IMG/VR virus record: IMGVR_UViG_3300048694_001005
Location: 116,566 to 180,565 of that record
DNA length: 64,000 nucleotides
Reading direction: 5' to 3' (one strand)
From: a virus
In this document: positions 35,167 through 62,769 of the stretch, one piece after another
How the letters are laid out: each line of letters starts with the position of its first letter
Numbering within the stretch: position 1 is the stretch's first letter
Translations under genes and position numbers: made by a program
The notes under the pieces: model-generated
The model's database searches: none
What the model was told of the DNA's origin: nothing
The model's input: only the letters and a program-made list of their open reading frames with translations

Positions 35167-35703
35167 ATGGATGTAACAATCGATTTAGAAACTCTGGACT
35201 TTAGGCCCACGTCAGTTGTATTGACGCTGGGTGCTATCAAGTTTGACCCCTATAGCAGTCGTGAGCCGGGCCCTGGTTATTATGTGAGATTTAATGTAGA
35301 CCAGCAGTTAGCTCTGGGCAGAACTGTGGATGATGCCACACTAAAGTGGTGGCGGCAACAGCCCGACCACATTCGTGATGAGGCTATGCAGGAACAGGAT
35401 CGCACAGACATAAATCAAGCATTGGATGAGTTATGCAAATTCCTAGTAGGTGTTGACAATATATGGGCGCAGGGCCCGGTGTTTGATATAGCTATGCTGG
35501 AGAATCTACTAAGTCAATTGAAGCGGCCCTATCCCTGGCAGTATTATCAAATACGTGACAGTAGAACACTGTTTGGCCTTGGCTGGGATCCGCGACGAGA
35601 GATGCGAACTGAAGCGCACAATGCACTGGCTGACTGTTATTATCAAAGCATCGCAGTGCAAAAGGTCTACGCAAAATTTGGTATCAAAAAGGATAGCAAG
35701 TGA
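35167..35703 (+). CDS. DEDDh 3'-5' exonuclease
   Basis: IDLETL, WAQGP.FDI, RD.RT, HNALADC. Confidence 0.8.
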   Translation: MDVTIDLETLDFRPTSVVLTLGAIKFDPYSSREPGPGYYVRFNVDQQLALGRTVDDATLKWWRQQPDHIRDEAMQEQDRTDINQALDELCKFLVGVDNIWAQGPVFDIAMLENLLSQLKRPYPWQYYQIRDSRTLFGLGWDPRREMRTEAHNALADCYYQSIAVQKVYAKFGIKKDSK

Positions 35704-36584
35704 GAAGTATTTTTGGTTTAATTTTATTTATTGGTTTTATCGCGCCGTTGCATGCACAAAATAACCTACAAATTGTGGTACCATTCGCTGCTGGTGGTCT
35801 CAACGACAGGTTGGCAAGACTGCTAGCATTGCAAATACCCAATGTTATCGTGGAAAATATCACAGGTGCTGGTGGGCTTGTGGGGGCAAATGCAGTAGCT
35901 AAAACAAATAAATTAGAAAATATGGTAGTGTTACACAGTGACGCTATTATGATTGCACCAATGCTTGCTACCGAAAAATTCTACACATTTCCGCAAGACT
36001 TTTCGTGCATTGCTGAAATAGGTGAAACTTACTTAGTTCTTTATAAATCTAAAAAAGCAAATTTCCCACCAAAAAACAACGAAATTTTGACCATTGCTGA
36101 TGGTGGCTTTGGTTCTACTGCTAATCTTGCAAGCACTTTATTAAAACAATATGTAAACGTCACACACATAAATTATAGAGGTGCTGCCCCCGCATTGGTT
36201 GGATTCTTGGCCGGAGATACTAATTTTTTAATGGAATTTGCTCCAATTGGAAAGGAACATGTTAATCGAGGAACAATAGATGTTGTTGCAGTGACTTCTC
36301 TTAAACGTCAAAGTGACTTTCCAACTGCGCCAACATTTCATGAACTAGGATATAAAAATGTCGTGGTAACTCCCACGATATTTGTTTTCGGCAATACGAA
36401 AATGTCGGTCCAAAGAAAACTAGAGTTAAATCAGAAATTAAATCAAATAATGGCATCTAATACAATGACTGCGCAGTTAGAACAAATTTCTGTTAAACAC
36501 ACAAGTTATGACTTAGAACAATGTCAAAATGCAGTAAGTCGAATTCACAGTAGATGGCAAAATGTCCTCAATGCCGTTAAATAA
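35700..36584 (+). CDS. Bug/TctC tripartite tricarboxylate transporter substrate-binding protein
   Basis: Signal peptide; VVPFAAGG..D..AR, VENITGAGG..G, YRGAAPA, PTF.ELGY. Confidence 0.85.
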   Translation: MRSIFGLILFIGFIAPLHAQNNLQIVVPFAAGGLNDRLARLLALQIPNVIVENITGAGGLVGANAVAKTNKLENMVVLHSDAIMIAPMLATEKFYTFPQDFSCIAEIGETYLVLYKSKKANFPPKNNEILTIADGGFGSTANLASTLLKQYVNVTHINYRGAAPALVGFLAGDTNFLMEFAPIGKEHVNRGTIDVVAVTSLKRQSDFPTAPTFHELGYKNVVVTPTIFVFGNTKMSVQRKLELNQKLNQIMASNTMTAQLEQISVKHTSYDLEQCQNAVSRIHSRWQNVLNAVK

Positions 36585-37710: not shown

Positions 37711-37976
37711 GCAAATACGAACCAAGAGTAAAAGAAATACGCGAGTTAGCTGACGCCATGAATTGGAAGATCAGTTGGCGCCGACGCGGTTCACGTGTCT
37801 ATGTAACTGTGATTACAAAGGATGGTAATCCGCTGTTGGGTGGGTATGATAATGTTCGAGAGTTTTTACAACGGTATTATAAAAATGTAGAAATAACCGC
37901 AGGTGGATATGGACGTTGGCATTTTTTGGTATATGACCTAATAGAATTACTAAAAGGAGAATGCAGTGCAGATTGA
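37707..37976 (+). CDS. Hypothetical protein
   Basis: Coupled ATGA overlap. Confidence 0.5.
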   Translation: MSKYEPRVKEIRELADAMNWKISWRRRGSRVYVTVITKDGNPLLGGYDNVREFLQRYYKNVEITAGGYGRWHFLVYDLIELLKGECSAD

Positions 37977-38394
37977 TCTAGAAAAATACAAAGAGTTTGT
38001 GGAGGCAGTAACTAGCGAGCCCAGTAATAACCTAACAGCTTTTATGAATCGCTGTGACGAACTGGATGCTAACTATGACAATGGTCAGCATGGACCGAAT
38101 ATCAATGTTCCATTATTGCTTACCGCATGCCTGGGTCTTGCAGCAGAATCCGGCGAGTTCATTGAAATTCCCAAAAAGATCTTCTTTCAGGGTAAACCAC
38201 TCAACGAAGAAAACGTATTCCATATGAAACGTGAATTGGGCGACCTTCTTTGGTATTGGGTCAATGCTTGCCGTGCATTAAATCTTGACCCCAATGATGT
38301 CATTGCAGAAAATGTGCGCAAACTGGAAGCGCGTTATCCCGGTGGTTCCTTTAACGTATATAACAGTGAGAATCGTAAAGATGGAGACATATAA
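37966..38394 (+). CDS. MazG-like nucleotide pyrophosphohydrolase
   Basis: GLAAESGEF..I.KK, KRELGDLLWY, N..KL..RYP. Confidence 0.85.
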   Translation: MQIDLEKYKEFVEAVTSEPSNNLTAFMNRCDELDANYDNGQHGPNINVPLLLTACLGLAAESGEFIEIPKKIFFQGKPLNEENVFHMKRELGDLLWYWVNACRALNLDPNDVIAENVRKLEARYPGGSFNVYNSENRKDGDI

Positions 38395-38737
38395 TTTAGG
38401 TGATGATCTGGCAAAATGCCAGTGGTTGGTTAACAAAGTGAAGACCAGCGAAACCTATGCGCAGAATCTTTATGCATCTCTTTGTAATATGCGGTGGCAA
38501 CGAGCCGAAGCTTGGCCCATATTAAAGGGCGAATTATGTGGCTATACTTGGCGCAGTGCCGGTGGTTTGATAGCTGATTTGCGCGAAGAAGGTGATTACC
38601 TCACGTGGTATTGCAGTGGTATTGGCGATGATAAACTTACACAGGGATATGTAGGCGAGGGAGTAGTTACTGATGAAATACGTGATGATCTAAAACGCTT
38701 GGGATGGTTCCCTGTTCCCTACGACGATGATCTGTAA
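38360..38737 (+). CDS. Hypothetical protein
   Basis: YAQNLYA.LCN, WR.AGG.IA motif; start approximate. Confidence 0.55.
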   Translation: MTVRIVKMETYNLGDDLAKCQWLVNKVKTSETYAQNLYASLCNMRWQRAEAWPILKGELCGYTWRSAGGLIADLREEGDYLTWYCSGIGDDKLTQGYVGEGVVTDEIRDDLKRLGWFPVPYDDDL

Positions 38738-38770
38738 AATCAAGCGGTTAGAAAATATTTCATCAAAATA

Positions 38771-38810
38771 ATAAAAAATGCTTGACCGCAGGTATAAATA
38801 AAGTTATATT
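38771..38810 (+). promoter_or_regulatory. Composite promoter of tRNA operon 1
   Basis: TTGACC(38782)-17-TATATT with embedded TATAAATA; 32 bp identical to 45857-45888. Confidence 0.8.
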
Positions 38811-38832
38811 AGATGCACAGTTAAACAAAGAG

Positions 38833-38934
38833 ATGAACATGAAAACCTATTTCAACAACCAAAGCAATCAGCAAAATCAGAGTGATAATAACTCTGATAG
38901 CGCACGGCTTTTGGGTGAAGGATGGGATGAATAA
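38833..38934 (+). CDS. Leader peptide rich in Asn/Gln/Ser/Asp (attenuator 1)
   Basis: MNMKTYFNNQSNQQNQSDNNSDSARLLGEGWDE*; codons 8-23 all N/Q/S/D. Confidence 0.7.
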   Translation: MNMKTYFNNQSNQQNQSDNNSDSARLLGEGWDE

Positions 38935-38957
38935 GTAACAACAGATTCCAACAAAGA

Positions 38958-38987
38958 CCCCAGAAGCCCAAAGCGACTGGGGTTTTT
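38958..38987 (+). terminator. Attenuator terminator 1
   Basis: CCCCAG/CTGGGG + TTTTT; left arm also pairs with 38906-38915. Confidence 0.8.
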
Positions 38988-38996
38988 CATTGCTGT

Positions 38997-39099
38997 ATGT
39001 GTGGCGCAACGCGGGCGCGGCAGGCACATTAAACATCTGTAAAAAGGGCGGCCTGGTGGATGAACTCCCTCTTGTGGGACGAAAAATACCAGCGTAATA
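38997..39099 (+). ncRNA. Unknown structured RNA, copy 1
   Basis: Aligns with 46120-46226 with compensatory changes in four helices. Confidence 0.7.
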
Positions 39100-39105
39100 T
39101 TTTGT

Positions 39106-39182
39106 AGGGGTGAGATGCGACGGGAAGCATACCAGCCTTTGAAGTTGGGTCTTAGTGGGTTCGAATCCCTCCACCCCCGCCA
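39106..39182 (+). tRNA. tRNA-Gln(TTG)
   Basis: Anticodon arm CCAGC-CTTTGAA-GTTGG; TTCGAAT; CCA. Confidence 0.85.
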
Positions 39183-39202
39183 AAATGTTAAGTGTTATTT
39201 GT

Positions 39203-39289
39203 TCCGGAGTACCCGAGTTGGTAGCAGGGGGCAGACTGTTAATCTGTTGCGCGGAAGCGCCATCGCTGGTTCGAGCCCAGCCTCCGGAG
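39203..39289 (+). tRNA. tRNA-Asn(GTT) with long variable arm, no encoded CCA
   Basis: GCAGA-CTGTTAA-TCTGT; acceptor TCCGGAG/CTCCGGA. Confidence 0.85.
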
Positions 39290-39303
39290 CAAATAACATT
39301 TAT

Positions 39304-39379
39304 ACCGTAGAGTCCACCGGGTGGTGATACCTGACTGTCTATCAGGTCGCGGCGGGTTCGAGTCCCGTCTACGGTGCCA
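39304..39379 (+). tRNA. tRNA-Asp(GTC)
   Basis: CCTGA-CTGTCTA-TCAGG; CCA. Confidence 0.88.
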
Positions 39380-39385
39380 AAATTT

Positions 39386-39472
39386 GGAGACGTGGCTGAA
39401 TTGGTAAAAGCGTCGGATTGCTACTCCGAAGACCGAAAGGTTGCGCAGGTTCGAACCCTGTCGTCTCCGCCA
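39386..39472 (+). tRNA. tRNA-Ser(GCT)
   Basis: TCGGA-TTGCTAC-TCCGA; long V arm; G73-CCA. Confidence 0.92.
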
Positions 39473-39509
39473 ATATCGCAATAAATACAGCATTAACAAG
39501 GAACATTCA

Positions 39510-40214
39510 ATGAAGCAAGTTTATGGCTGGTGGTTTCCTGACTGGGAACAACATTTTCAAGATTATTTCAAAAGCTTTTCTAAACAATGTAAAGAAATTC
39601 CCTGCCCCTATCAAAAGGCACAAAGAGATTTTGCATTACAATTTGTAAAGAAACATCGAAAAATAATAGATGTAGGCGGCAATGTAGGTACGTGGAGTCA
39701 TCCACTTAGTAAGATATTTGCAGAAGTTCATGCATTTGAGCCGCATCCAGAGAATCGTGAATGTTTTCAGCGCAACATGGAAGCAGTTAAAAACTACACT
39801 CTATATCCCTATGCGCTAAGTGAACGCGCTGGTCGTTTTCCACTCTATATACATGATACTAGCTGCGGTAATATAAGTTTAAACCTAACAGGAGTATTGC
39901 AGGGCCCTACTCCAGATATCAGCAAGCCTTCAATGGAACATATCAAAACTATTGAAGTTGAAGTACGAACCTTAGATAGTTTTAACTTTAGCGAAGTTGA
40001 TTTTATCAAGATTGATGTGCAAGGGCACGAGTTTGGTGTGTTGAAAGGTGCCACGGAATTATTGAGGATGCAAAGTCCAGCTTTAGTTATGGAATTAGCC
40101 ACACGAACACCTGAGGAGATTGCAGAAAAGAATTCTATCACCCAATGGTTACAGCAGTTTGGTTATGTGTTACGTGGCAATAGAAATAAAGAAACAGTTT
40201 ACACTAAACAATGA
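39510..40214 (+). CDS. FkbM-family methyltransferase
   Basis: IIDVGGNVG, AFEP, FIKIDVQGHE..VL.GA. Confidence 0.85.
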   Translation: MKQVYGWWFPDWEQHFQDYFKSFSKQCKEIPCPYQKAQRDFALQFVKKHRKIIDVGGNVGTWSHPLSKIFAEVHAFEPHPENRECFQRNMEAVKNYTLYPYALSERAGRFPLYIHDTSCGNISLNLTGVLQGPTPDISKPSMEHIKTIEVEVRTLDSFNFSEVDFIKIDVQGHEFGVLKGATELLRMQSPALVMELATRTPEEIAEKNSITQWLQQFGYVLRGNRNKETVYTKQ

Positions 40215-41029
40215 CAGTTAGCTGTTATTTGCAGGGCACAAGTAAGGGTGACAATATTGTTAGACTCTTTGCTGGTGGGTGTGCTGGCACTTTAGCTCGC
40301 ACCACAGACTACATACAGACGCGACTGCTACCAAGTACTCCGGTTTTTCTCTGGGGATGTTTGCGTGGCAGTGATTTAATACTCAAACAATGCCTAGCAA
40401 CAGGGCATGAATTTTACTATGCGGATAATTGTTATTACGGTAACACGGATTTTTTACGTATAACACGAAACGGACTGCAAAACACTAAGTTTATCCAACG
40501 CCACGGTGATAGGCTCAGTAATAACCCAGTCAAAATTAAAAGTTGGCGTCGCAGTGGTTCACATATTGTGATTTTGCCGCCAACAGAAAGCTTTGCTCAA
40601 TTGTTTGGCAAGCAAACCTGGGTGCAGGATACAGTAAATGAATTAAAGCAATACACCGATAGGCAGATCATTGTACGTTACAAGCCCAACGAAACGAAAA
40701 TAGGCTGGGAAAATGGTTACATGGTAAATGCTGGCGCTATAACAAGACAGGATGCTACGACACGTAGTTTACAGCAGGATTTAGCTGATGCTTGGGCAGT
40801 GGTGGCATTTCAAAGCAGTGCGGTCTGGGAAGCAATTGCGCAGGGTGTGCCGGCATTTGTTGATCCCATGAATGCTGCTAGTGTGTTAGGCAATACAGAT
40901 TTAAGCAAAATTGAAACGCCCGTGTATCCGGATCAGGAACCGTATTTTAGGCATATCAATTATTGTCAGTTTACAAGAGCGGAGATAGCAAGTGGCTTCG
41001 CTTGGCAGATTTTGAGCACAGCGGTATGA
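40211..41029 (+). CDS. Capsule-biosynthesis/GT-B-like protein
   Basis: YADNCY, IIVRYKP, VVAFQSSAVWEAI..GVPAF. Confidence 0.55.
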   Translation: MTVSCYLQGTSKGDNIVRLFAGGCAGTLARTTDYIQTRLLPSTPVFLWGCLRGSDLILKQCLATGHEFYYADNCYYGNTDFLRITRNGLQNTKFIQRHGDRLSNNPVKIKSWRRSGSHIVILPPTESFAQLFGKQTWVQDTVNELKQYTDRQIIVRYKPNETKIGWENGYMVNAGAITRQDATTRSLQQDLADAWAVVAFQSSAVWEAIAQGVPAFVDPMNAASVLGNTDLSKIETPVYPDQEPYFRHINYCQFTRAEIASGFAWQILSTAV

Positions 41030-41175
41030 ACGCTCACTCCTGTGGAGGTCGGATGGGAGTGTCTGGTGCGTGTGGGCGAGCCGACGTCAATCTACATTGC
41101 TTCTTTTGATGATAGGCCAGAAAGTGGGTGCAGGGGGTTCGAATCCCTCAATCCCACCTCAAATATAAATACGTG

Positions 41176-41625
41176 ATGCACATTACAGAAATAGAAGATC
41201 AGGAAGATAAAGTTGGTGAGGCCATGGAGAGTTGGTTTGAGATGTGGCAACCCAGTAAACAGATACCCATAATCTTATCTGCTCCTGAAGCAAAGGATTT
41301 TAAAACAGCTAATGCCGACACCATTTATCGCTGTTATGTTTTGACACGGGATGGTAAGATACGTGGTCAAAAGAAGAATTCAAAGGTGGCAGTTTATACC
41401 ATGGATCAGCGCATGGCTCATGAGTTTTATCATTCACTGGACATTGCAAACAAATATATTGTTGTGGCCAAGCAATTCCATCCCAAAGATTTGATACTGA
41501 ATTTCAGTGCATTTGCTAACAGCAAAGGTCGCAGTGGTGGCTGGGACGAAAAAGAGTTATGGATGAAACCAACTCCATACTATACTTCAGTGCAGCCCAG
41601 CGAAATCGTATTCAGAAGTAAATAA
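41176..41625 (+). CDS. Putative late virion protein
   Basis: ATG 41176 after TATAAATA (41164-41171); MHITEIED start. Confidence 0.55.
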   Translation: MHITEIEDQEDKVGEAMESWFEMWQPSKQIPIILSAPEAKDFKTANADTIYRCYVLTRDGKIRGQKKNSKVAVYTMDQRMAHEFYHSLDIANKYIVVAKQFHPKDLILNFSAFANSKGRSGGWDEKELWMKPTPYYTSVQPSEIVFRSK

Positions 41626-41627
41626 TT

Positions 41628-41719
41628 GGAGAGTTGGCAGAGCCCGGCTTATTGTACCGCATTGGAAGTGCGGAGGTGCGTTTACGTGCCCGCGAGTTCG
41701 AATCTCGCACTCTCCGCCA
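41628..41719 (+). tRNA. tRNA-Ser(GGA)
   Basis: CCGCA-TTGGAAG-TGCGG; long V arm; CCA. Confidence 0.92.
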
Positions 41720-41721
41720 AA

Positions 41722-42000
41722 TTATTTGTAACCAATACGATTAAGGATATTAATAGCTCTATTGCGCAGTTTAGTTTCAAACTGGCTTTCAGTTAATACA
41801 CCTTTTTCCGTGTTACATTTTCTGCAGGTAACTTGCAGATTAGCATATGATGTGGCACCACCCTGTGATTCAGGAACAACGTGGTCCAAGTGTACTTCAG
41901 ATTTATCCAAGTCCACACCACAATAAACGCAACGTAACCCATCGCGTTCAATTACCATGCGACGCAGGTTAACGGGGATTCGTTCTTTTGTTTTGGACAT
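41722..42000 (-). mobile_element. Free-standing HNH endonuclease
   Basis: RDGLRCVYCG...HLDHVVP...GG....NL...CRKCN; antisense, right after tRNA. Confidence 0.88.
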
Positions 42001-42171
42001 ATCGTTATTTACTTTGGTTGATGTACCAAATTAAGAATCTCCGCCTACAGGACGCTGTAGGTATGATAGCTGCGACTCCGATGGCACTGCGGGGTCTGGA
42101 AATACCGGATTTTAGTCTCCGGTGCAACCGTCAAGCCGGGAAAGAAACCATAACAGGTGTCAGCGAACAAT

Positions 42172-42243
42172 TGGGGTGAGACTGGGAGTCACACCTGCCT
42201 CTGAAGCAGGATGGAGTTGGTTCGAGCCCAACCGCCCCCGCCC
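42172..42243 (+). tRNA. tRNA-Gln(CTG)
   Basis: CCTGC-CTCTGAA-GCAGG; T arm GTTGG-TTCGAGC-CCAAC; ends CCC. Confidence 0.8.
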
Positions 42244-42266
42244 AGTGATTCAAGCTAAATACTGAC

Positions 42267-43442
42267 ATGAGATCCTACGAATTTTTAAACGAAAACATCA
42301 GTGATGATATGTACCTGCTGCATCTGGCCCGGGACCTAAAACAGGCGGTCTTCAAATGGTGGGTGATACACGGCAAGATAGATTCAAAAAAAAAGGTATT
42401 GGTTGGCAAAGTAAAAGATTTGGTCACGACCCCTTATCAGGGCGATAATCCCAATATACCAGAACTATTTAATACCAGAATTTATATTGGTGACCCCTAC
42501 TATGACTGGGAGGGGCGGCGAGCCGGCGCCTATGCCAGCTCTAGTGAAATAGTTTTACGTGATAAAGACAGAATAAGAGAAAAAACATTTGCACATGAAT
42601 TAAGGCATGTGTTAGATAGCATATCTTTGTACATCTATAAAGGAAATAGACAGAGAAAACGAGACCCAGAAAACACTTGGTCCAGTGATCTCGAGCTTGA
42701 TGCGATATTCACAGAAGTTTTGCATAGTATCTATGAACAGTTAATCTTCGATCAAGCGTACGGAAACCCAAGGAAAGAAACTCGTTCTAGTAATTTGATT
42801 CGAACCGTTGACAAGGCATTCAATTGGTTCGGTGATCGGATAACATCTTTGCAAAGTGGTGATGCTCGAGATCAAGCGCTCTATAAAAACTATCGGCGCA
42901 AGGCCATGACCTACGCAGTACATGTCTATGACAACGCACAATCTTATCTGGAGAAAAACCCAGTACAAATAAATTGGAATGAACGACAAAGACCCGCCTC
43001 AGGTTGGACACAAGGCTATGTACCAATAAACCTAAATGTGCGTTCGCTGGTGAGATTTTATCTCTGGGATCAGGCCCGGAAAAATCCCAGCCTATACAAT
43101 ATGTCGCTGGGTCAACTCAAGCAGTACATAATCAACTCTCCGGATGTGGGGGATTACGCGAAATACGGCGATGGTAAAACGCCAAAAGAAGACATCATCA
43201 AACTCATGAACTACAACCACAAAAATGCAACGTTGTTGAATCGATATGCAGGGGAATACTATGTTGATGATGAAAATGACAGTGAAGAGGACCAAGAATT
43301 CTATTCCGATATGGACCCTTATGAAATACAATTGGCCGATGGTACTAGGATGATAGTCCCCAGCACCATAATATCGTACACAAATCCCAACTATAACTAC
43401 GAATATGATGAACGAGGACGGAGACGTTATGAAAATACATGA
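42267..43442 (+). CDS. Putative virion protein with HExxH motif
   Basis: MRSYEFLNE start after TAAATA; FAHELRH. Confidence 0.55.
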   Translation: MRSYEFLNENISDDMYLLHLARDLKQAVFKWWVIHGKIDSKKKVLVGKVKDLVTTPYQGDNPNIPELFNTRIYIGDPYYDWEGRRAGAYASSSEIVLRDKDRIREKTFAHELRHVLDSISLYIYKGNRQRKRDPENTWSSDLELDAIFTEVLHSIYEQLIFDQAYGNPRKETRSSNLIRTVDKAFNWFGDRITSLQSGDARDQALYKNYRRKAMTYAVHVYDNAQSYLEKNPVQINWNERQRPASGWTQGYVPINLNVRSLVRFYLWDQARKNPSLYNMSLGQLKQYIINSPDVGDYAKYGDGKTPKEDIIKLMNYNHKNATLLNRYAGEYYVDDENDSEEDQEFYSDMDPYEIQLADGTRMIVPSTIISYTNPNYNYEYDERGRRRYENT

Positions 43443-44367
43443 AATCATAACTGAGCTACGACGCCACGCTGATAGATTCGAGCGTAAACCCGAATTGCAG
43501 GAACTTTTTGATTATTTGAGAAGTTTTGATCAAAGCCAATTACAAAACATGTTTGTTCACGCATCGGAGATTCCCAAAATTGGATTGAAACCAACTAAGC
43601 CAATAACTTATGCTGGTACCATAGAACCACAGGGAATCTATACTTATAGAGCAATCGATTATCTTTCGTGGATGAAAAAACATGGTCTGACAGGGTTTGG
43701 CGGCTCTTTTCCCTTTGTTACCGTGCTAACTGTAAAATCTGACACAAAGTTTCTCGACGCGGAACATTACGAACAAATAATCGAAAAGTTGAAATCTCAA
43801 AGTGCAGATCCTCCTGGCTCAAAAAATTGGAAGATCACCGCGGCGCAGGTAAACCACTATCTTCAAAGATTGGGATATGGGTTTGTACAAAGAAGATTGC
43901 CCGGAAACCGAGTATCAAGCGCCAAAGAATATGTTATATTAAGCCCAAAATATATTGACACTATGAAACAATTTGAGGTGCATAAATCACCAGCTAACGG
44001 TTCTTATCCTATTCGTGATTTTGATGCTACCGCTTGGATCGCGTCCAAGGAGTATAGAAAAAAACTAAAGCCATACCAAGATTTCGCAAAAACACACCCC
44101 GAATTAAGGGGTTTTGATTTTAATGAGATGTCGCCACGCAATATTTCAGCACTAAAGTTATTGATTTATGCACTCAAGAATAAAAAAGTATTGGATCGAC
44201 GTCAGGAAGAAGCATTGGTTGCTTATAGAACAGCTGACACCCCTTCGGACCCAGAATATACTCACGAACTCTTTGACATCTACAAAAAAGAAGTATTAGA
44301 TCCGCAGGGTCTCAAGCCTAAACTGACGCCGACGGAGTTGGCTAATGTGGCTAGGGTAGTAAATTAA
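43429..44367 (+). CDS. Putative virion protein
   Basis: MKIHEIITE start. Confidence 0.55.
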   Translation: MKIHEIITELRRHADRFERKPELQELFDYLRSFDQSQLQNMFVHASEIPKIGLKPTKPITYAGTIEPQGIYTYRAIDYLSWMKKHGLTGFGGSFPFVTVLTVKSDTKFLDAEHYEQIIEKLKSQSADPPGSKNWKITAAQVNHYLQRLGYGFVQRRLPGNRVSSAKEYVILSPKYIDTMKQFEVHKSPANGSYPIRDFDATAWIASKEYRKKLKPYQDFAKTHPELRGFDFNEMSPRNISALKLLIYALKNKKVLDRRQEEALVAYRTADTPSDPEYTHELFDIYKKEVLDPQGLKPKLTPTELANVARVVN

Positions 44368-44378
44368 CTAATCCATTT

Positions 44379-44468
44379 GGAGAGTTGGCAGAGCCCGGTT
44401 TATTGCACCTGATTCGAAATCAGACATACCGCAAGGTATCATAGGTTCAAATCCTATACTCTCCGCCA
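44379..44468 (+). tRNA. tRNA-Ser(CGA)
   Basis: CCTGA-TTCGAAA-TCAGA; long V arm; CCA. Confidence 0.9.
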
Positions 44469-44472
44469 TAAT

Positions 44473-45171
44473 TTACTCCTTGTTTCTTTTGCATCGATCA
44501 AAGTGCCAACGATTCATAATGGTATTTCCGCCCAAAAAACCACAATGCGGGCATTGAATCTTTGGTACTGTTCTCTTTCTATGAGTAATGGAAAGACATT
44601 TGTCACCATGCCACCGACTATAATTTCCAGCATCAACAATTTTGCTGCAATGTGGGCATTGTTTTTTGATTTTATTTTGAAAGTGATGTTTATTTCTTGA
44701 AACAAGTTCGTTCTGCACAGCCCTTGAAAGTGTGCCATCTAAAAAATTATGAGTTCCCTCCTCTACACGCCTTCTACTGGTTTCTCCTTGGATGCGTCCA
44801 CCCAAAAAATGGTGTGTTCCGGCTTTAACCGCATCACTTGCATGGCTAGTGCCGTCGGCTCTTCTGAGTAAATGATGAGATCCTTCGTTTACCAATCGCC
44901 TTGCCAAATCCTTGGCATCATTGCTAATTTCTTCGTGAGTCTTACTCATCCTATTATTAATCCGAAAACATGCTCCCCAATCTCCCTGGGAGAAATGTAT
45001 GTCATAATGTTTTTGAATTGTGACGCATTTCAAATTATTTGGGTCATTGTTATCATGATTGCCATCTAAATGATGGATCTCATAACTTCTACCGGTGTGA
45101 TCTTTCGGGATTTTACCAAAGTGATTTTGGTAAATTTTACGATATTTTTTGGTTCCGCAATAAATACACAT
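44473..45171 (-). mobile_element. HNH homing endonuclease with C-terminal Zn-finger repeats
   Basis: YEIHHLDGNHDNNDPNNL; CPHC...RWH..RC repeats; SD AAGGAG. Confidence 0.85.
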
Positions 45172-45235
45172 GCTGGTGCTCCTTTCAAGCATTAGAGTGG
45201 TCGAGAATTGATACTTCTGTGGACCACACTTATTT

Positions 45236-45685
45236 ATGCTGATAATGATTAATTCAATTTCCGACCCCCTATTGAGATACATTAAGGACGATCCCGTCAG
45301 ACCAAATTTATCTACTGAGTTTCGAGTAACTGATAATAGAATTGTGTTAGCTTTGGTGGATCAAGATGATTTAGATATTAAGGTACGAGCAATGTGCTGT
45401 GTAAGTTTTCATGATTCGGTCCCACAGAGATTGGATGACTTGCTACAAACATCTGATTCCCCATCTATTTGTCTTTTCTATACAATCTGGAGTTACGTTG
45501 CTGGTGCAGGTAGAACGCTGATATTTGAAGCAGTGCGGCATATACAGGAAACACGACCCAATATACATAGATTTGTCACGCTCAGTCCCAAAACAGATAT
45601 GGCACGACGTTTTCACATACGTAATGGTGCAGTAGTGTTTAGGGAAAATCCCGAAACAGTCAATTACGAATACGTTAACAGTTGA
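45236..45685 (+). CDS. Hypothetical protein (possible GNAT-like)
   Basis: FYTIWSY..GAGR.LI, VTLSPKT.MA..FH..NGA. Confidence 0.5.
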   Translation: MLIMINSISDPLLRYIKDDPVRPNLSTEFRVTDNRIVLALVDQDDLDIKVRAMCCVSFHDSVPQRLDDLLQTSDSPSICLFYTIWSYVAGAGRTLIFEAVRHIQETRPNIHRFVTLSPKTDMARRFHIRNGAVVFRENPETVNYEYVNS

Positions 45686-45718
45686 CATTTATTTTAGATA
45701 TATGTATTATAGGAACAT

Positions 45719-45812
45719 GGAGAGTTGGCCGAGTGGTCGAAGGCACCTTCCTGCTAAGAAGGCATACGGGCATAAACCTGTATCGAGAGTTCGAATCTCT
45801 CACTCTCCGCCA
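45719..45812 (+). tRNA. tRNA-Ser(GCT), second copy
   Basis: CCTTC-CTGCTAA-GAAGG; own promoter TTGACA(45682)-17-TATTAT. Confidence 0.92.
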
Positions 45813-45856
45813 TAAAGTTTTGATTTGGTTGACATAAATAAATTTAACCAAAAGAA

Positions 45857-45896
45857 ATAAAAAATGCTTGACCGCAGGTATAAATAAAAGTATAGT
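45857..45896 (+). promoter_or_regulatory. Composite promoter of tRNA operon 2
   Basis: TTGACC(45868)-17-TATAGT with embedded TATAAATA; duplicate of 38771-38802. Confidence 0.8.
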
Positions 45897-45933
45897 AGCA
45901 ACATAGGAATTTAACTTTTAAACGGAAACAAAG

Positions 45934-46053
45934 ATGCAACACTTAAGAACACATATAGAGTTTACATTGAAACCAGCGATGACCGCACCGGCCTCATATT
46001 GGCTCGTGATTGGACGCGGTGAATGTGGATTCAGGGAGTTTTTGCAGATGTAG
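45934..46053 (+). CDS. Leader peptide of attenuator 2
   Basis: MQHLRTHIEFTLKPAMTAPASYWLVIGRGECGFREFLQM*; all amino acids except Asn and Asp. Confidence 0.65.
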   Translation: MQHLRTHIEFTLKPAMTAPASYWLVIGRGECGFREFLQM

Positions 46054-46079
46054 CATCAAACAGATTTAATATGCAAAGA

Positions 46080-46110
46080 CCCCGAAGATCCCAAAGACTT
46101 CGGGGTTTTT
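46080..46110 (+). terminator. Attenuator terminator 2
   Basis: CCCCGAAG/CTTCGGGG + TTTTT; left arm also pairs with 46027-46046. Confidence 0.82.
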
Positions 46111-46119
46111 CATTGTAGT

Positions 46120-46226
46120 TAGTGTGGCGCAACGAGGGCGCAGTGGGCACTATAAACATCCACTAAACGGGCGGCCTTGGTGATCAACGTGCGGCGATAA
46201 CGCATTAGTAAAACCCAAGCGTAATA
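46120..46226 (+). ncRNA. Unknown structured RNA, copy 2
   Basis: Paralog of 38997-39099 with covariation. Confidence 0.7.
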
Positions 46227-46351
46227 AAGTAGATTCTTTAAGGTCTGGCCGTTACCAGCCTGGCAAAAACGGCGACAGAATCTACTTTATTACACACATT
46301 CTGGAACCAAATGGGAGTGAAATGTCCGTGGCGGAGTGTGTTAAACAATAT

Positions 46352-46426
46352 GTATCGGTGGCTGAAAAGTTAGGCATCCGCCTGCAAAGCGGATTTATGG
46401 GATGGCAGAATTCCTCCGATACTCCA
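46352..46426 (+). tRNA. tRNA-Cys(GCA), atypical T loop
   Basis: TCCGC-CTGCAAA-GCGGA; acceptor GTATCGG/CCGATAC, T73-CCA. Confidence 0.8.
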
Positions 46427-46432
46427 AACAAT

Positions 46433-46522
46433 GGCGGGTTCGCATAGCGGCGATTGCAGTGGTCTCCAAAACCACCGATGAATATACCATCCACGGGAGT
46501 TCGAGTCTCTCACCCGTCGCCA
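46433..46522 (+). tRNA. tRNA-Trp(CCA) with long variable arm
   Basis: GTGGT-CTCCAAA-ACCAC; extra arm GATG/CATC; G73-CCA. Confidence 0.82.
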
Positions 46523-47184
46523 TACATTGAGTCAAATAACTTTATTCGTTGATGTAGGTCACTTAACGTGATTGACGATTTGGCTCGCTTTTTTTGATTT
46601 TCTTTATGTCGAACTAATTTACAGTTCGCGGGATGTGCGAGTAGTTTTGGATCAATTTTATTTTTGAACCCATCGCTTACCGAATAAAGATGATCACGTG
46701 AGATACCGTTAGTATTTTTAATTCCGGATCTAGATCCAGGAGTGGAATACCAACCAAACTCTTTAATCATTTCGGATGCCCCAATAAACCAATTTGGATA
46801 TTGGGATATTGAAAAATTAAATCGGCATTGATATCCGTATTGATTTTTTGTTTCCTGCACAGAAGGATGAATAGTTTTTACAGTTGGTGAATACCACTGC
46901 TTACCTGAAATCTTGCAGGTACAAAGGTAAATTTTTGTAAATGGTTCAACAAAGGCAATTTTGGATTTAACTCGTTCTTGCGGATTGCGTCGTTGGTGCT
47001 CTCCAAATTGGTTTTTGATAGTAGTTTTTTTACCGATGGTATATTTGAGTTTTGCTAGGTGGTCGTCGGTAATAACACGACTGTTGGCACAGCGACGAGA
47101 ACAGAATTTTTTGTTACCCCATTTACTGTAACTATTGAATACGATATTGCATTTGGGGCAGATGGCTTGAATATATTTGTTCAT
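46510..47184 (-). mobile_element. Putative homing endonuclease (Zn-finger + HNH-like SRDH domain)
   Basis: CPKC...FCSRRCANSR; GISRDHLYSVSDGF...HPANC; stop overlaps tRNA-Trp 3' end. Confidence 0.7.
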
Positions 47185-51065: not shown

Positions 51066-51129
51066 AAATTGAATGACGCTTGACTTTGTATGTCAAATGT
51101 ATACAATAGAATGCAAAGGTAAATTTATC

Positions 51130-59701: not shown

Positions 59702-59729
59702 TTGACAGCCTGATAAATTAGTGTATAAT
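59702..59729 (+). promoter_or_regulatory. Sigma70-type promoter of tRNA operon 3
   Basis: TTGACA-16-TATAAT. Confidence 0.8.
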
Positions 59730-59962
59730 ATTGAACATGTAGTTAATGCAGCTAGGTGGTGGTGAAGTAAAGCCTAGTCAGGACACAGAACGAGATAACT
59801 TCAAAGTTCGCACTGGTTTCGAATCCAGTCAGCTGCTGAGCTCTTTAAAAATTTGCGCCGATACCCATCGCGTTGTATTTGGGATCGCCCGGTGTCTTCC
59901 GGGAAGCAGGTAATAAGAAAACTAGGGATTGCGATTTCTAGTAGAAATAACTGTGGTGCAAA

Positions 59963-59976
59963 TGCTCTTTAACAAT
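59963..59976 (+). promoter_or_regulatory. rrn-type boxA antitermination site
   Basis: TGCTCTTTAACAAT matches the E. coli rrn boxA; second near copy GCTCTTTAAAAAT at 59840-59852. Confidence 0.75.
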
Positions 59977-60459: not shown

Positions 60460-60537
60460 GCGGGTGGACAGGACAAGGGGCGTCCAGCGGATTTCCAATC
60501 CGCAGATCGCGGAGTTCAACTCTCCCCACCCGCTCCA
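60460..60537 (+). tRNA. tRNA-Gly(TCC)
   Basis: GCGGA-TTTCCAA-TCCGC; CCA. Confidence 0.88.
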
Positions 60538-60621
60538 GAACATGAGTCGAGGGTAGTGGCCTCAACACGTTGCCTAGGGTAGTTCACTGCTACCCAAAAC
60601 AGCGTGGACTCCCGATTATTT

Positions 60622-60707
60622 GCCTGGGTGGTGGAACGGTATACACAACGGACTTAAAATCCGTCGCCTTTACGGGCTTGAGGGTTCGAATCCCTCCCCA
60701 GGCACCA
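60622..60707 (+). tRNA. tRNA-Leu(TAA)
   Basis: ACGGA-CTTAAAA-TCCGT; long V arm; CCA. Confidence 0.93.
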
Positions 60708-60808
60708 TATTGAAACGTATTCAAAGACTGTGGCCACAGTCCAGCTGGCAGCAGGGTTCAGATATCTGACACGTTGGGTTCGATTCCCAGAGTATGTTTC
60801 AATATGGT
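60704..60808 (+). repeat. Long-stem unit enclosing tRNA-like loop
   Basis: ACCATATTGAAACGTATTC/GAGTATGTTTCAATATGGT 19 bp; inner T arm TGGG-TTCGATT-CCCA. Confidence 0.75.
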
Positions 60809-60821
60809 AACAAATGAATTT

Positions 60822-60917
60822 GCTCCTGTAGCATAATGGTCAATGCTCCAAGCTTATACCTTGGCGATGCCTCTAGATGAGGGGATGATGTAGGTTCGAA
60901 TCCTACCGGGAGTACCA
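60822..60917 (+). tRNA. tRNA-Ile(TAT) with long extra arm
   Basis: CCAAG-CTTATAC-CTTGG; extra arm CCTC/GAGG; A73-CCA. Confidence 0.82.
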
Positions 60918-60925
60918 GAATTAAT

Positions 60926-61002
60926 CTGCCTGTAGCTCAGTTGGACAGAGCACGAGCCTTCTAAGCTTGGGGTCGGGGGTTCGAATCCCTCCAGGCAGGC
61001 CA
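60926..61002 (+). tRNA. tRNA-Arg(TCT)
   Basis: CGAGC-CTTCTAA-GCTTG; CCA. Confidence 0.93.
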
Positions 61003-61019
61003 CAGTTAAATAGATATAT

Positions 61020-61095
61020 GCGTCCTTAGCGCAGCGGTAGTAGCATCGCCCTTACAAGGCGGAGGTCGTTGGTTCAATCCCAACAGGACGCACCA
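61020..61095 (+). tRNA. tRNA-Val(TAC)
   Basis: TCGCC-CTTACAA-GGCGG; CCA. Confidence 0.93.
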
Positions 61096-61101
61096 AATTA
61101 T

Positions 61102-61176
61102 GCCCCGATAGCTCAGTGGTAGAGCAACCGCCTTGTAAGCGGTAGGTCGTCTGTTCAATCCAGACTCGGGGCACCA
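61102..61176 (+). tRNA. tRNA-Thr(TGT)
   Basis: ACCGC-CTTGTAA-GCGGT; CCA. Confidence 0.93.
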
Positions 61177-61217
61177 ACTTAAACACAGGCATAAATAAAA
61201 TAAAAGGTGCTTGTGGT

Positions 61218-61649
61218 ATGAAAAAAGTAAATTACAGAAAATGGCAATGTTTAGAGTGTGGGACTACGCATGAAACACTACCATGGAAAACTGGAATGTT
61301 TTGCGATAATGCATGCCAAAGAAAATTCCAAAGAAAAGAAAGAATAGCACAGTGGTTAAATGAAGGAATCGATTGGAAAAATAACAGACGGGTTCCCGAT
61401 TGGGCGAGGCAGCATATAACTGAGCGAGATGGACATAAATGTTCCGTTTGCGGAATTAATACCTGGAATAGTAAAAGTATTGTTTTTGAAATTGAACATA
61501 AAGATGGCAACAGTGAAAATAATTTAGAAAACAATCTTTGTTTAATCTGCCCTAACTGCCATAGTCAAACGGATACCTATAAAAATAAAAACAAAGGCAA
61601 AGGGAGACACTTTAGGCGCGTTCGTTACGCAGAAGGTAAAAGTTTTTGA
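61218..61649 (+). mobile_element. HNH endonuclease
   Basis: CSVCG...EIEHKDGNSENN..NNL.LICPNCH; CATAAATA upstream. Confidence 0.88.
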
Positions 61650-61663
61650 AGCACCAAGTTTTG

Positions 61664-61738
61664 GGTGATATGGCCTAGATGGATGGGCACGGGTCTCATA
61701 AGCCTGCCAGGTTGGATCGTTACCAACTATCACCACCA
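61664..61738 (+). tRNA. tRNA-Met or Ile2 (CAT)
   Basis: CGGGT-CTCATAA-GCCTG; acceptor GGTGATA/TATCACC; CCA. Confidence 0.82.
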
Positions 61739-61912
61739 AGTTTCACTGCACAGTAAAAACAACGGAGAGGGTGTGCGGGTTCGAGTCCCGGCTGAGGCGG
61801 CTGGAAGGCCGGACTTGGCTGTCTCCCGGTGATTTAGGAGTACTCCTGGCGCCAGACTTCCCGATGCTGGCACAGGGAAGGGCAGTCGGGAAGCTGCCCG
61901 AGAGTTTTAGCA

Positions 61913-61986
61913 GCCCCCATAGTATAAAAGCATTACACGGCTTTGGTAAAGCTGAGACAGAGGAGCGTTACCTCTTGGGGGCACCA
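61913..61986 (+). tRNA. tRNA-Thr(GGT)
   Basis: CGGCT-TTGGTAA-AGCTG; CCA. Confidence 0.88.
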
Positions 61987-61993
61987 CAAATAT

Positions 61994-62081
61994 GGAGAGT
62001 TGGTAGAGCGGCCGATTACACCGGTCTTGAAAACCGGAGAACCGCAAGGTTCCGTGAGTTCGAATCTCACACTCTCCGCCA
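61994..62081 (+). tRNA. tRNA-Ser(TGA)
   Basis: CCGGT-CTTGAAA-ACCGG; long V arm; CCA. Confidence 0.93.
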
Positions 62082-62099
62082 AATTAAAGGAAATAAAAA

Positions 62100-62312
62100 T
62101 TGTTTAAAGTTTATTGGACCACGAACACCGGCGCGGTGCACGGTCAAGAGATAGCGGAATTAACCGCAGCATTACAAAGAACACAAGAATTGCGAAACAG
62201 TGGCTTAGCACGATTTGTCACTGTGATAGCAGAAGATCCCAACTGCACCAGTTTACCGGGTGCAGTAGTAATGGATCAAGCGGATTATCACTGGCGGAAA
62301 CGTCGTCGATAG
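62100..62312 (+). CDS. Small hypothetical protein
   Basis: SD AAGGA; TTG start. Confidence 0.5.
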   Translation: MFKVYWTTNTGAVHGQEIAELTAALQRTQELRNSGLARFVTVIAEDPNCTSLPGAVVMDQADYHWRKRRR

Positions 62313-62321
62313 TTAAGCAAT

Positions 62322-62398
62322 GCCCTGGTGACGGAATTGGCATACGTGTCAGACTCAAAATCTGAATTCTGTGGGTTCGAGTCCCACCTGGGGCACCA
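62322..62398 (+). tRNA. tRNA-Leu(CAA), short variable region
   Basis: TCAGA-CTCAAAA-TCTGA; 5-nt V loop; CCA. Confidence 0.88.
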
Positions 62399-62419
62399 AA
62401 TTATATCAAAGGAGAAGCA

Positions 62420-62614
62420 ATGCGCAAACCAAGTCGTGGTACGGATTTAGATCGTCAAAAATGTGTAGCTGAAGCTGGTGGCAATCAATTTGATCTAGTA
62501 TTATTAGCAGCAGCACGAGCACGGCAATTAATGACAGAACGCAGTGACGCCGACAATTGTAACTCACCCATGACTGCGTTGTTAGAAATTCAGTCGGGCG
62601 AGTTGAAGAAATAG
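62420..62614 (+). CDS. rpoZ: RNA polymerase omega subunit-like protein
   Basis: GNQFDLVLLAAARARQL ... ALLEIQSG matches the omega signature; SD AAGGAG. Confidence 0.7.
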   Translation: MRKPSRGTDLDRQKCVAEAGGNQFDLVLLAAARARQLMTERSDADNCNSPMTALLEIQSGELKK

Positions 62615-62689
62615 CGCGGGTAGCTCAGAGGCAGCAGCATCTGCACGACATGCAGAAGGTCGAGATTTCGAAATTCTCTCCGCGTACCA
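62614..62689 (+). tRNA. tRNA-Val(GAC)
   Basis: TCTGC-ACGACAT-GCAGA; CCA. Confidence 0.82.
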
Positions 62690-62695
62690 AAATAT

Positions 62696-62769
62696 GCCCC
62701 TGTAGTTCAATGGTAGAACAACTGTTTCGTAAACAGTAGACGCCCGCTCGATTCGGGTCGGGGGCTCCA
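62696..62769 (+). tRNA. tRNA-Thr(CGT)
   Basis: ACTGT-TTCGTAA-ACAGT; CCA. Confidence 0.85.

Follow-up and report, generated by a model that had tools for sequence, protein, structure and literature searches.

A pseudoknotted leader RNA family at the head of viral tRNA arrays

Introduction

Arrays of tRNA genes are common in phages, where they are discussed as counter-measures to the depletion of host tRNA, and we know of no account that explains the transcription of such long untranslated operons or its control. The question is raised in a concrete form by a 64,000-nucleotide (nt) stretch of viral DNA (the window), which is the final 64 kb of the 180,565-bp IMG/VR viral contig IMGVR_UViG_3300048694_001005 (completeness 51% by CheckV estimate). 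The plus strand of the window carries, from position 39106 on, 36 tRNA genes called by ARAGORN together with additional tRNA-like genes, with open reading frames (ORFs) in between, and two of its tRNA operons, A and B, are each headed by a copy of a sequence of about 105 nt. The sequencing runs listed for positions 38700-46600 of the window are all freshwater DNA metagenomes, with no RNA run among them. A preliminary description, made from the sequence alone, had taken the two copies for a duplicated and pseudoknotted cis element that is made only on readthrough of a terminator, such as a put-like processive antiterminator, a processing ribozyme or a riboswitch. What kind of RNA stands at the head of these operons, and what could it do there? 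We found both elements to be copies of a widespread, virus-associated family of structured RNAs of about 100 nt, called pseudoknot RNA in the following.

Results

Two copies of one structured RNA

The two repeats were located at 38997-39099 and 46120-46226, as had been described, and the blocks GTGGCGCAACGNGGGCGC, GGCAC, AAACATC, GGGCGGCC and GCGTAATA are indeed common to both. The 18-mer GTGGCGCAACGNGGGCGC occurs exactly twice in the 64 kb against an expectation of 0.07, and the copies are only about 76% alike. A covariance model of the family (R1, made from 65 members) gave two matches only on the whole 180.5-kb contig, copy A with 87 bits (E 2e-24) and copy B with 71.7 bits. The elements and their helices are as follows.

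Copy A
38997..39099, plus strand: pseudoknot leader RNA copy A (R1 match, covariation)
38997-39002 with 39024-39029: P1, ATGTGT/GCACAT
39004-39007 with 39015-39018: P2, GCGC/GCGC, loop AACGCGG
39020-39023 with 39037-39040: P3, GCAG/CTGT
39046-39051: GGGCGG
39053-39057 with 39088-39092: P4, CTGGT/ACCAG
39058-39064: GGATGAA
39066-39069 with 39076-39079: P5, TCCC/GGGA
3' end: tail CGTAATA

Copy B
46120..46226, plus strand: pseudoknot leader RNA copy B (R1 match, covariation)
46120-46125 with 46147-46152: P1, TAGTGT/GCACTA
46127-46130 with 46138-46141: P2, GCGC/GCGC, loop AACGAGG
46142-46146 with 46160-46164: P3, AGTGG/CCACT
46169-46174, plus strand: GGGCGG
46176-46180 with 46215-46219: P4, CTTGG/CCAAG
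46189-46193 with 46201-46205: P5, GTGCG/CGCAT, loop GCGATAA
46221-46293 and 46294-46341, plus strand: optional 3' modules, long hairpin P6 and hairpin P7 (from folding)

The P2 hairpin (GCGC/GCGC, loop AACGNGG), which is invariant between copies A and B, had been overlooked. The two extra hairpin modules of copy B had also been overlooked; P6 and P7 are missing from copy A and are present in many other members of the family.

Fold and covariation of the family

The four helices in which compensatory changes had been claimed from the two copies (P1, P3, P4 and P5) are all real, and further covariation was observed among the homologues when 96 distinct members from viral contigs were aligned with R1. 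Standard pairs make up 90.0% of P2-P5 in this alignment, compared with 32-39% when the 3' partner is slid by 1-3 columns, and the covariation score of 0.90 stands against 0.08-0.12 for the slid controls and 0.20 for shuffles; fitting the alignment to R1 biases these values toward the structure, and the margin over the controls is very large. Double compensatory changes were found in all 19 of the 19 pairs of P2-P5. P1 was tested apart from the other helices because it closes the pseudoknot and has a variable linker. Its 3' strand occurs in 25 distinct variants (among them CACU, CACGU, CAAGU, GCCGGU, CCACCU, CCUGUUU, GCGUA and GCGCGC). For 21 of them, a stretch able to pair over 5 bp or more lies immediately 5' of P2; in 1000 permutations of the 3' strands among the sequences, this number averaged 8.0 and never exceeded 15.

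The strand order of the fold is P1-P2-P2'-P3-P1'-P3'-P4-P5-P5'-P4', where P1 and P3 form an H-type pseudoknot. The 5' part consists of the P1 5' strand (commonly AGUGU), a linker of 1-9 nt or longer and the P2 hairpin with its invariant 7-nt loop AACGNGG. This is followed by the P3 5' strand, the P1 3' strand (commonly GCACU), an A-rich loop (UAUAAACAU) and the P3 3' strand, which is joined to the P4 5' strand by the invariant junction AAACGGGCGG. The internal loop of the P4-P5 arm is also invariant, with GGAUGAA placed opposite either GAAAAAU or AGUAAAAU; the GAAAAAU type is found in copy A and the AGUAAAA type in copy B. The P5 loop is GCGAUAA in 38 members and U-rich in 57. The invariant nucleotides are almost entirely formally unpaired purines.

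Hairpins of the P6/P7 type were observed at other loci between the core and the first tRNA, where they show compensatory changes, and further subfamilies carry different hairpin modules 3' of the core. Since the members have different 3' modules or none, these modules are optional. The strand of the element was assigned from its co-orientation with the tRNA genes and from the direction of promoters and terminators; a comparison of G-U with A-C combinations (80 against 62 cells) was not decisive.

Several identities of parts of the RNA were considered and dropped. A mimic of a CsrA or Shine-Dalgarno site (GGAUGA, GAGG) was dropped since the RNA has only one such site and the base in the middle of the loop is variable, and a stimulator of recoding for the upstream ORF since no frame follows downstream. 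P7 shows no covariation with the P1 variants, which speaks against a switch between these two helices. A kink-turn or loop-E motif was considered as well for the P4/P5 internal loop but could not be assigned.

Distribution in viral and cellular genomes

Successive pattern scans of IMG/VR on the conserved blocks yielded 5, about 32 and then more than 120 contigs among the matches listed. Among prokaryotes, 185,579 species were scanned, each represented by a single genome (596 Gb in all). Of the 77 pattern matches obtained, only three carry both the P2 stem and the tail motif; these three lie on short contigs of 2-6.7 kb from metagenome-assembled genomes and resemble binned phage DNA. In these scans the family was essentially confined to viral contigs. 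A blastn search with six members or regions against 50,697 phage records returned only a tRNA-Asn match or noise and no cultured carrier. R1 detected its own contig and three other contigs as a control, and gave no match at E<=1 in the genomes of T4, T5, KVP40, HK022 and T7.

Whether the RNA belongs to a known class was examined with Rfam 15, as the preliminary description had suggested. A cmscan of the window at gathering thresholds returned tRNAs only, so that neither copy falls in an Rfam family, with riboswitches, EAR, HDV-like, hatchet, pistol and twister RNAs among the families covered, and nothing overlapped the elements in a search of the 6 kb around both copies at E<=10. Both copies are also left uncalled by ARAGORN and by the Rfam tRNA model, which were used to look for tRNA or tRNA-like identity. 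No description of the family was found in full-text literature searches. Pseudoknot RNA is an uncatalogued RNA class. A catalogue of 10,006 candidate structured RNAs from IMG/VR describes no tRNA-array leader (PMC10690425), and it may include pseudoknot RNA unnamed.

Position at the head of tRNA arrays

The element was observed to stand at the head of tRNA arrays and to point into them. Among the 109 loci with room for the comparison, a tRNA gene on the same strand was called by ARAGORN within 600 nt downstream at 94, and within 300 nt at 85; tRNA genes on the opposite strand were called at none of the element-oriented loci. Upstream tRNAs are rare and are set apart by a new promoter unit, and the arrays downstream contain up to 41 tRNAs. 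The view of the element as a conserved cis element is thus borne out by a large covarying family, a co-oriented position at the head of arrays and the presence of one copy per operon. In addition to the contig of the window, L060 (loci are numbered with L) has two copies. The second copy of L060 (L060:7375-7482) is very divergent (34.5 bits); it is found 5.7 kb farther downstream and, like the window copies, follows a terminator-like hairpin.

The distance from the element to the first tRNA is variable, from 12 to more than 1000 nt. Longer gaps hold genes for HNH homing endonucleases (L009, L084, L103 and L115) or radical-SAM proteins (L022, L070, L090, L028 and L033). L009, the single locus that had seemed to lack a nearby tRNA, carries 10 tRNAs behind a promoter and an inserted HNH gene. 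At the other extreme, five lineages, that of copy A included, have only 12-21 nt between the element and the first tRNA, and the tRNA-Gln of operon A begins 7 nt past the conserved tail of copy A. The first tRNA genes of the two operons are listed below.

39106..39472, plus strand: first tRNAs of operon A (Gln, Asn, Asp, Ser; ARAGORN, Rfam)
46352-46423, plus strand: tRNA-like gene of operon B (Rfam tRNA model, 32.7 bits)
46433-46522, plus strand: tRNA-Trp of operon B (ARAGORN)

Some of the tRNA genes are unusual. The tRNA-like gene at 46352-46423 has a GCA (Cys-type) anticodon loop and was not called by ARAGORN. Variable arms that are unusually long for the anticodon were noticed in the tRNAs Asn-GUU (88 nt, 39203-39290), Trp-CCA (90 nt, 46433-46522) and Ile-UAU (96 nt, 60822-60917). 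Furthermore, an RNA of about 95 nt recurs between P7 and the first ARAGORN tRNA at L094, L097, L101, L108, L120, L121, L130, L132, L157 and L165. It has a CCACCA end, an acceptor-like stem, a T arm and a CUGUAAC (Tyr-type) anticodon-like loop, together with an aberrant D region and a long extra arm, and it is not called by ARAGORN. Protein genes around operon A include a TctC-like gene (35700-36584), a gene for a MazG-type nucleotide pyrophosphohydrolase just upstream of the operon (37966-38394) and a gene for an FkbM-type methyltransferase within it (39441-40214).

The upstream unit

Both window copies are preceded by the same arrangement of a promoter, a short leader ORF and a terminator-like hairpin.

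38771..38812, plus strand: promoter A, -35 TTGACC 38782-38787 and -10 TATATT 38805-38810 (consensus scan)
38793-38800, plus strand: T4-late-type TATAAATA in the spacer of promoter A
38833..38934, plus strand: leader ORF A, 33 codons, rich in Asn, Gln, Ser and Asp
38953..38989, plus strand: terminator-like hairpin A, stem GACCCCAG/CTGGGGTT, U5, -16.3 kcal/mol
45857..45898, plus strand: promoter B, same block, -35 TTGACC 45868-45873 and -10 TATAGT ending at 45896
45934..46053, plus strand: leader ORF B, 39 codons, with the YW motif of the leader-peptide family
46076..46111, plus strand: terminator-like hairpin B, stem GACCCCGAAG/CTTCGGGGTT, U5, -17.1 kcal/mol

Both units share one 29-mer of the promoter block without a difference, and the window has no further occurrence of it; the -35 and -10 boxes are separated by 17 nt, with TATAAATA in this spacer. 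The placement right after terminators was confirmed, since each copy starts 8-10 nt past a G+C-rich hairpin of the intrinsic-terminator type with a U-run. No promoter-like site was found in the 8-10 nt between the terminator and P1 of either window copy. Because a promoter, a leader ORF and a terminator precede each copy, each would be transcribed only by polymerases that read through the terminator, and the proposal that the copies are made only upon readthrough fits this anatomy.

The arrangement is not particular to the window. Of 93 members, 23 have a terminator-like hairpin whose end is 5-10 nt from P1; they come from the more divergent lineages and include both window copies. Most of these 23 have a sigma70-like promoter about 200 nt farther upstream (TTGACA-17-TAcAAT), often with TATAAATA in the spacer. 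Promoter, leader ORF of 30-60 codons, terminator, pseudoknot RNA and tRNAs form a conserved unit in about a quarter of the members. The most populous subclass, whose members are closely related, has no terminator and carries the element directly after a conserved ORF of about 60 amino acids with the motif IDYxKLNERIVEQAYE...QKLIQDKFERAR, often with an FSVN end, and with its stop 3-20 nt before P1. No Pfam family matches this ORF, which was found ahead of the RNA at just 10 loci (L017, L072, L089, L097, L113, L120, L131, L140, L150 and L151). Clustering of the ORFs within 3 kb upstream revealed no universal neighbouring protein gene.

The leader ORFs of the window, together with those of L003, L033, L034, L052, L075, L083, L133, L134, L144 and L169, form a loose peptide family. 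Some 20 residues ahead of the stop its members share a conserved aromatic (Y)W, and residues of the IE.NSDRAP type are frequent; the leader peptide of copy A, with its Asn/Gln/Ser/Asp-rich composition and an F replacing the W, is an outlier. Conservation at the peptide level hints at control by the nascent peptide (of the arrest type) rather than at pure attenuation by codon supply.

A boxA in place of the pseudoknot

A third promoter of the window also leads into untranslated tRNA genes, and it offers a comparison with the two units above.

59702..59975, plus strand: comparison unit, with promoter TTGACA-16-TATAAT at 59702-59729, boxA TGCTCTTTAACAA at 59963-59975 and the third tRNA cluster at 60460-62769

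The sequence TGCTCTTTAACAA is the sole exact 13-mer of the rrn-type boxA in the window, where about 0.002 would be expected by chance. It lies about 235 nt past the consensus sigma70 promoter in an ORF-free stretch of tRNA-like modules that contain T arms. A weaker boxA-like sequence, AGCTCTTTAAAAA, was noticed at 59839 in the same stretch. When up to three mismatches were allowed, 31 boxA matches were obtained in the window, and none of them falls inside 38997-39099 or 46120-46226. The pseudoknot is therefore found behind two of the three window promoters that lead into untranslated tRNA genes and the exact boxA behind one, and two other strong promoter-like sites of the array, at 51080 and 52816, which lead straight into ORFs, have neither.

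On other contigs, the boxA 12-mer was found on the array strand of L010, L052 and L075 with 4 occurrences in 1.15 Mb, compared with 0.14 expected. Each of these lies about 30 nt past its own sigma70-like promoter, downstream of the pseudoknot element. The simplest reading is that each promoter has one leader signal and that the pseudoknot is the positional counterpart of boxA.

Discussion

What could an RNA in this position do? Judged only by where it stands, we tentatively favour a cis-acting role in antitermination or in the suppression of pausing, which we consider possible rather than probable. Among the three functions named in the preliminary description, the put-like antiterminator is the best positional fit. 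A polymerase that has passed the leader terminator would transcribe the pseudoknot RNA, and this RNA would act in cis on that polymerase and keep it elongating through the long, largely untranslated array of tRNA genes and interspersed ORFs. Such a polymerase would resist pausing or termination, whether intrinsic or dependent on Rho. Rho attacks transcripts that are not translated, which is why bacteria shield their rRNA operons with boxA. Contact with RNA polymerase or an elongation factor would be made by the invariant unpaired segments rich in purines, and the pseudoknot RNA would correspond in function to the boxA in front of the phage's third tRNA cluster.

This role is favoured because of the strict position at the head of operons, the single copy per operon, the independence of distance and the alternation with boxA. 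As each operon has one copy, and two copies that are only about 76% alike have both been kept, a requirement in cis fits better than a trans-acting RNA. The variable distance and the inserted HNH and radical-SAM ORFs fit an effect on the polymerase that does not depend on distance, and they argue against a fixed processing guide. A broader proposal, about which we are more doubtful, is that the family would be a second class of RNA-only (or Nus-independent) processive antiterminators after HK022 put and structurally unrelated to it. It would serve tRNA arrays of 5-25 kb in many uncultured freshwater phages and, from its place behind a leader-peptide attenuator, would let tRNA supply feed back on the synthesis of phage tRNA.

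Several observations weigh against antitermination in cis. In several members, copy A included, the first tRNA begins 7-21 nt past the element, and cleavage there by RNase P would soon cut the tether between the RNA and its polymerase. At L009 a U-run and a promoter come after the P4 stem, and at L052 a promoter with boxA comes after the element; in both, the RNA may end as a separate molecule. A consensus scan found 18 terminators inside the arrays against 16.4 by chance, which neither supports nor opposes a need for antitermination. The fold resembles neither the HK022 put RNAs nor EAR, and the alternation of pseudoknot and boxA is observed in few cases.

A stable small RNA that acts in trans on a host or phage protein or RNA would accommodate some of these observations, and we regard it as rather unlikely. 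Such an RNA would be released by RNase P, RNase III or its own terminator, and the leader-peptide attenuator would gate its synthesis; it would resemble the stable RNAs C and D of the T4 tRNA cluster. The invariant unpaired purine-rich segments resemble a binding surface, the arrangements at L009 (U-run, promoter) and L052 (hairpin, then promoter with boxA) allow a separate product, and the long perfect hairpins P6 and P7 resemble processing sites of the RNase III type. However, action in trans requires neither a strict position at the head of arrays nor two diverged copies with one per operon, and the 3 kb upstream hold no conserved neighbour protein gene as a possible partner. The close spacing to the first tRNA in the five lineages mentioned above, and the exclusive association with tRNA arrays, would suit a module for the folding or processing of the tRNA precursor, which might shield the first tRNA from leader and terminator sequence or initiate maturation by attracting RNase P, RNase E or RNase III. 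We consider this unlikely, since the distance to the first tRNA is highly variable, with ORFs and even promoters in between, and since the benefit would be limited to the first of 10-40 tRNAs.

The two remaining functions of the preliminary description, riboswitch and ribozyme, both appear improbable. A riboswitch-like sensor would bind a small molecule or a tRNA in its conserved core and control the array. Like many aptamers, pseudoknot RNA combines a pseudoknot with invariant junction nucleotides, and a leader that senses translation is already part of its context. Yet there is no conserved expression platform, as the sequence behind the core may be an ORF, a promoter, a tRNA or one of several unrelated hairpin modules; the core has no adjacent terminator except the one upstream, which is beyond its control, and there is no Rfam match. 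A new self-cleaving ribozyme, which would separate the leader-terminator RNA from the tRNA precursor, seems no more probable than a sensor. The RNA is compact, pseudoknotted and phage-borne with invariant unpaired purines, and other small ribozymes, theta/HDV-like (hepatitis delta virus-like) and hammerhead, reportedly adjoin phage tRNAs (work by Kienbeck et al. from 2024). Against this, no known ribozyme family matched even at E<=10, the strand order P1-P2-P3-P1'-P3' is unlike the nested double pseudoknot of HDV, and the element lies 5' of arrays rather than 3' of tRNAs.

Comparison with known systems places the family near several of them and inside none that we compared. The putL and putR sites of HK022 are likewise structured promoter-proximal leader RNAs, one per operon and co-oriented with it, and pseudoknot RNA could share their action in cis on the transcribing polymerase. 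The put RNAs consist of two stem-loops without a pseudoknot and head protein-coding early operons in a few lambdoid phages. The fold of pseudoknot RNA is instead an H-type pseudoknot with three hairpins, and R1 has no match (E<=1) in the whole HK022 genome. The boxA of rrn operons and the nut-type sites of lambda and T7 resemble the element in lying just behind a promoter that leads into long untranslated and highly structured RNA genes. Unlike the element, which is a 100-nt fold without boxA, boxA is a linear sequence of 12-13 nt bound by NusB/NusE. Pseudoknot RNA may work like the put or boxA/nut leaders and yet belong to neither.

Other phage RNAs share its company of tRNA genes. GOLLD (RF01998) and ROOL (RF03087) are non-coding RNAs without a known function which are found beside tRNA genes, but neither model matched the pseudoknot elements. 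They are ornate RNAs of 500-800 nt that form multimeric complexes and are not known to have a fixed position at the head of arrays. The theta and minimal HDV-like ribozymes are small pseudoknotted phage RNAs associated with tRNA genes as well. They have a nested double pseudoknot of the order P1-P2-P3-P3'-P1'-P1.1-P4-P2', a cleavage site at tRNA 3' ends and little sequence conservation, whereas pseudoknot RNA lies 5' of whole arrays, has another strand order and long invariant segments and matches no HDV family (E<=10). The stable RNAs C and D of T4 (species 1 and 2) are small non-tRNA RNAs co-transcribed with phage tRNA genes, also without a known function, but R1 has no match anywhere in T4. 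These RNAs lie at the distal end of the tRNA cluster and not at its head.

What is new in this analysis is the unit of promoter, leader peptide and terminator, the near-exclusive viral distribution, the optional 3' modules and the alternation with boxA. The family is large, and its covariation is sufficient for structure determination. Should the RNA act by modifying RNA polymerase, it would represent a new class of antiterminator RNA and could serve as a compact tool in synthetic operons; as a ribozyme, sensor or protein decoy it would still be a new RNA class. A conserved, virus-only fold that heads more than 100 arrays among the matches listed gives a concrete handle on the transcription of phage tRNA arrays.

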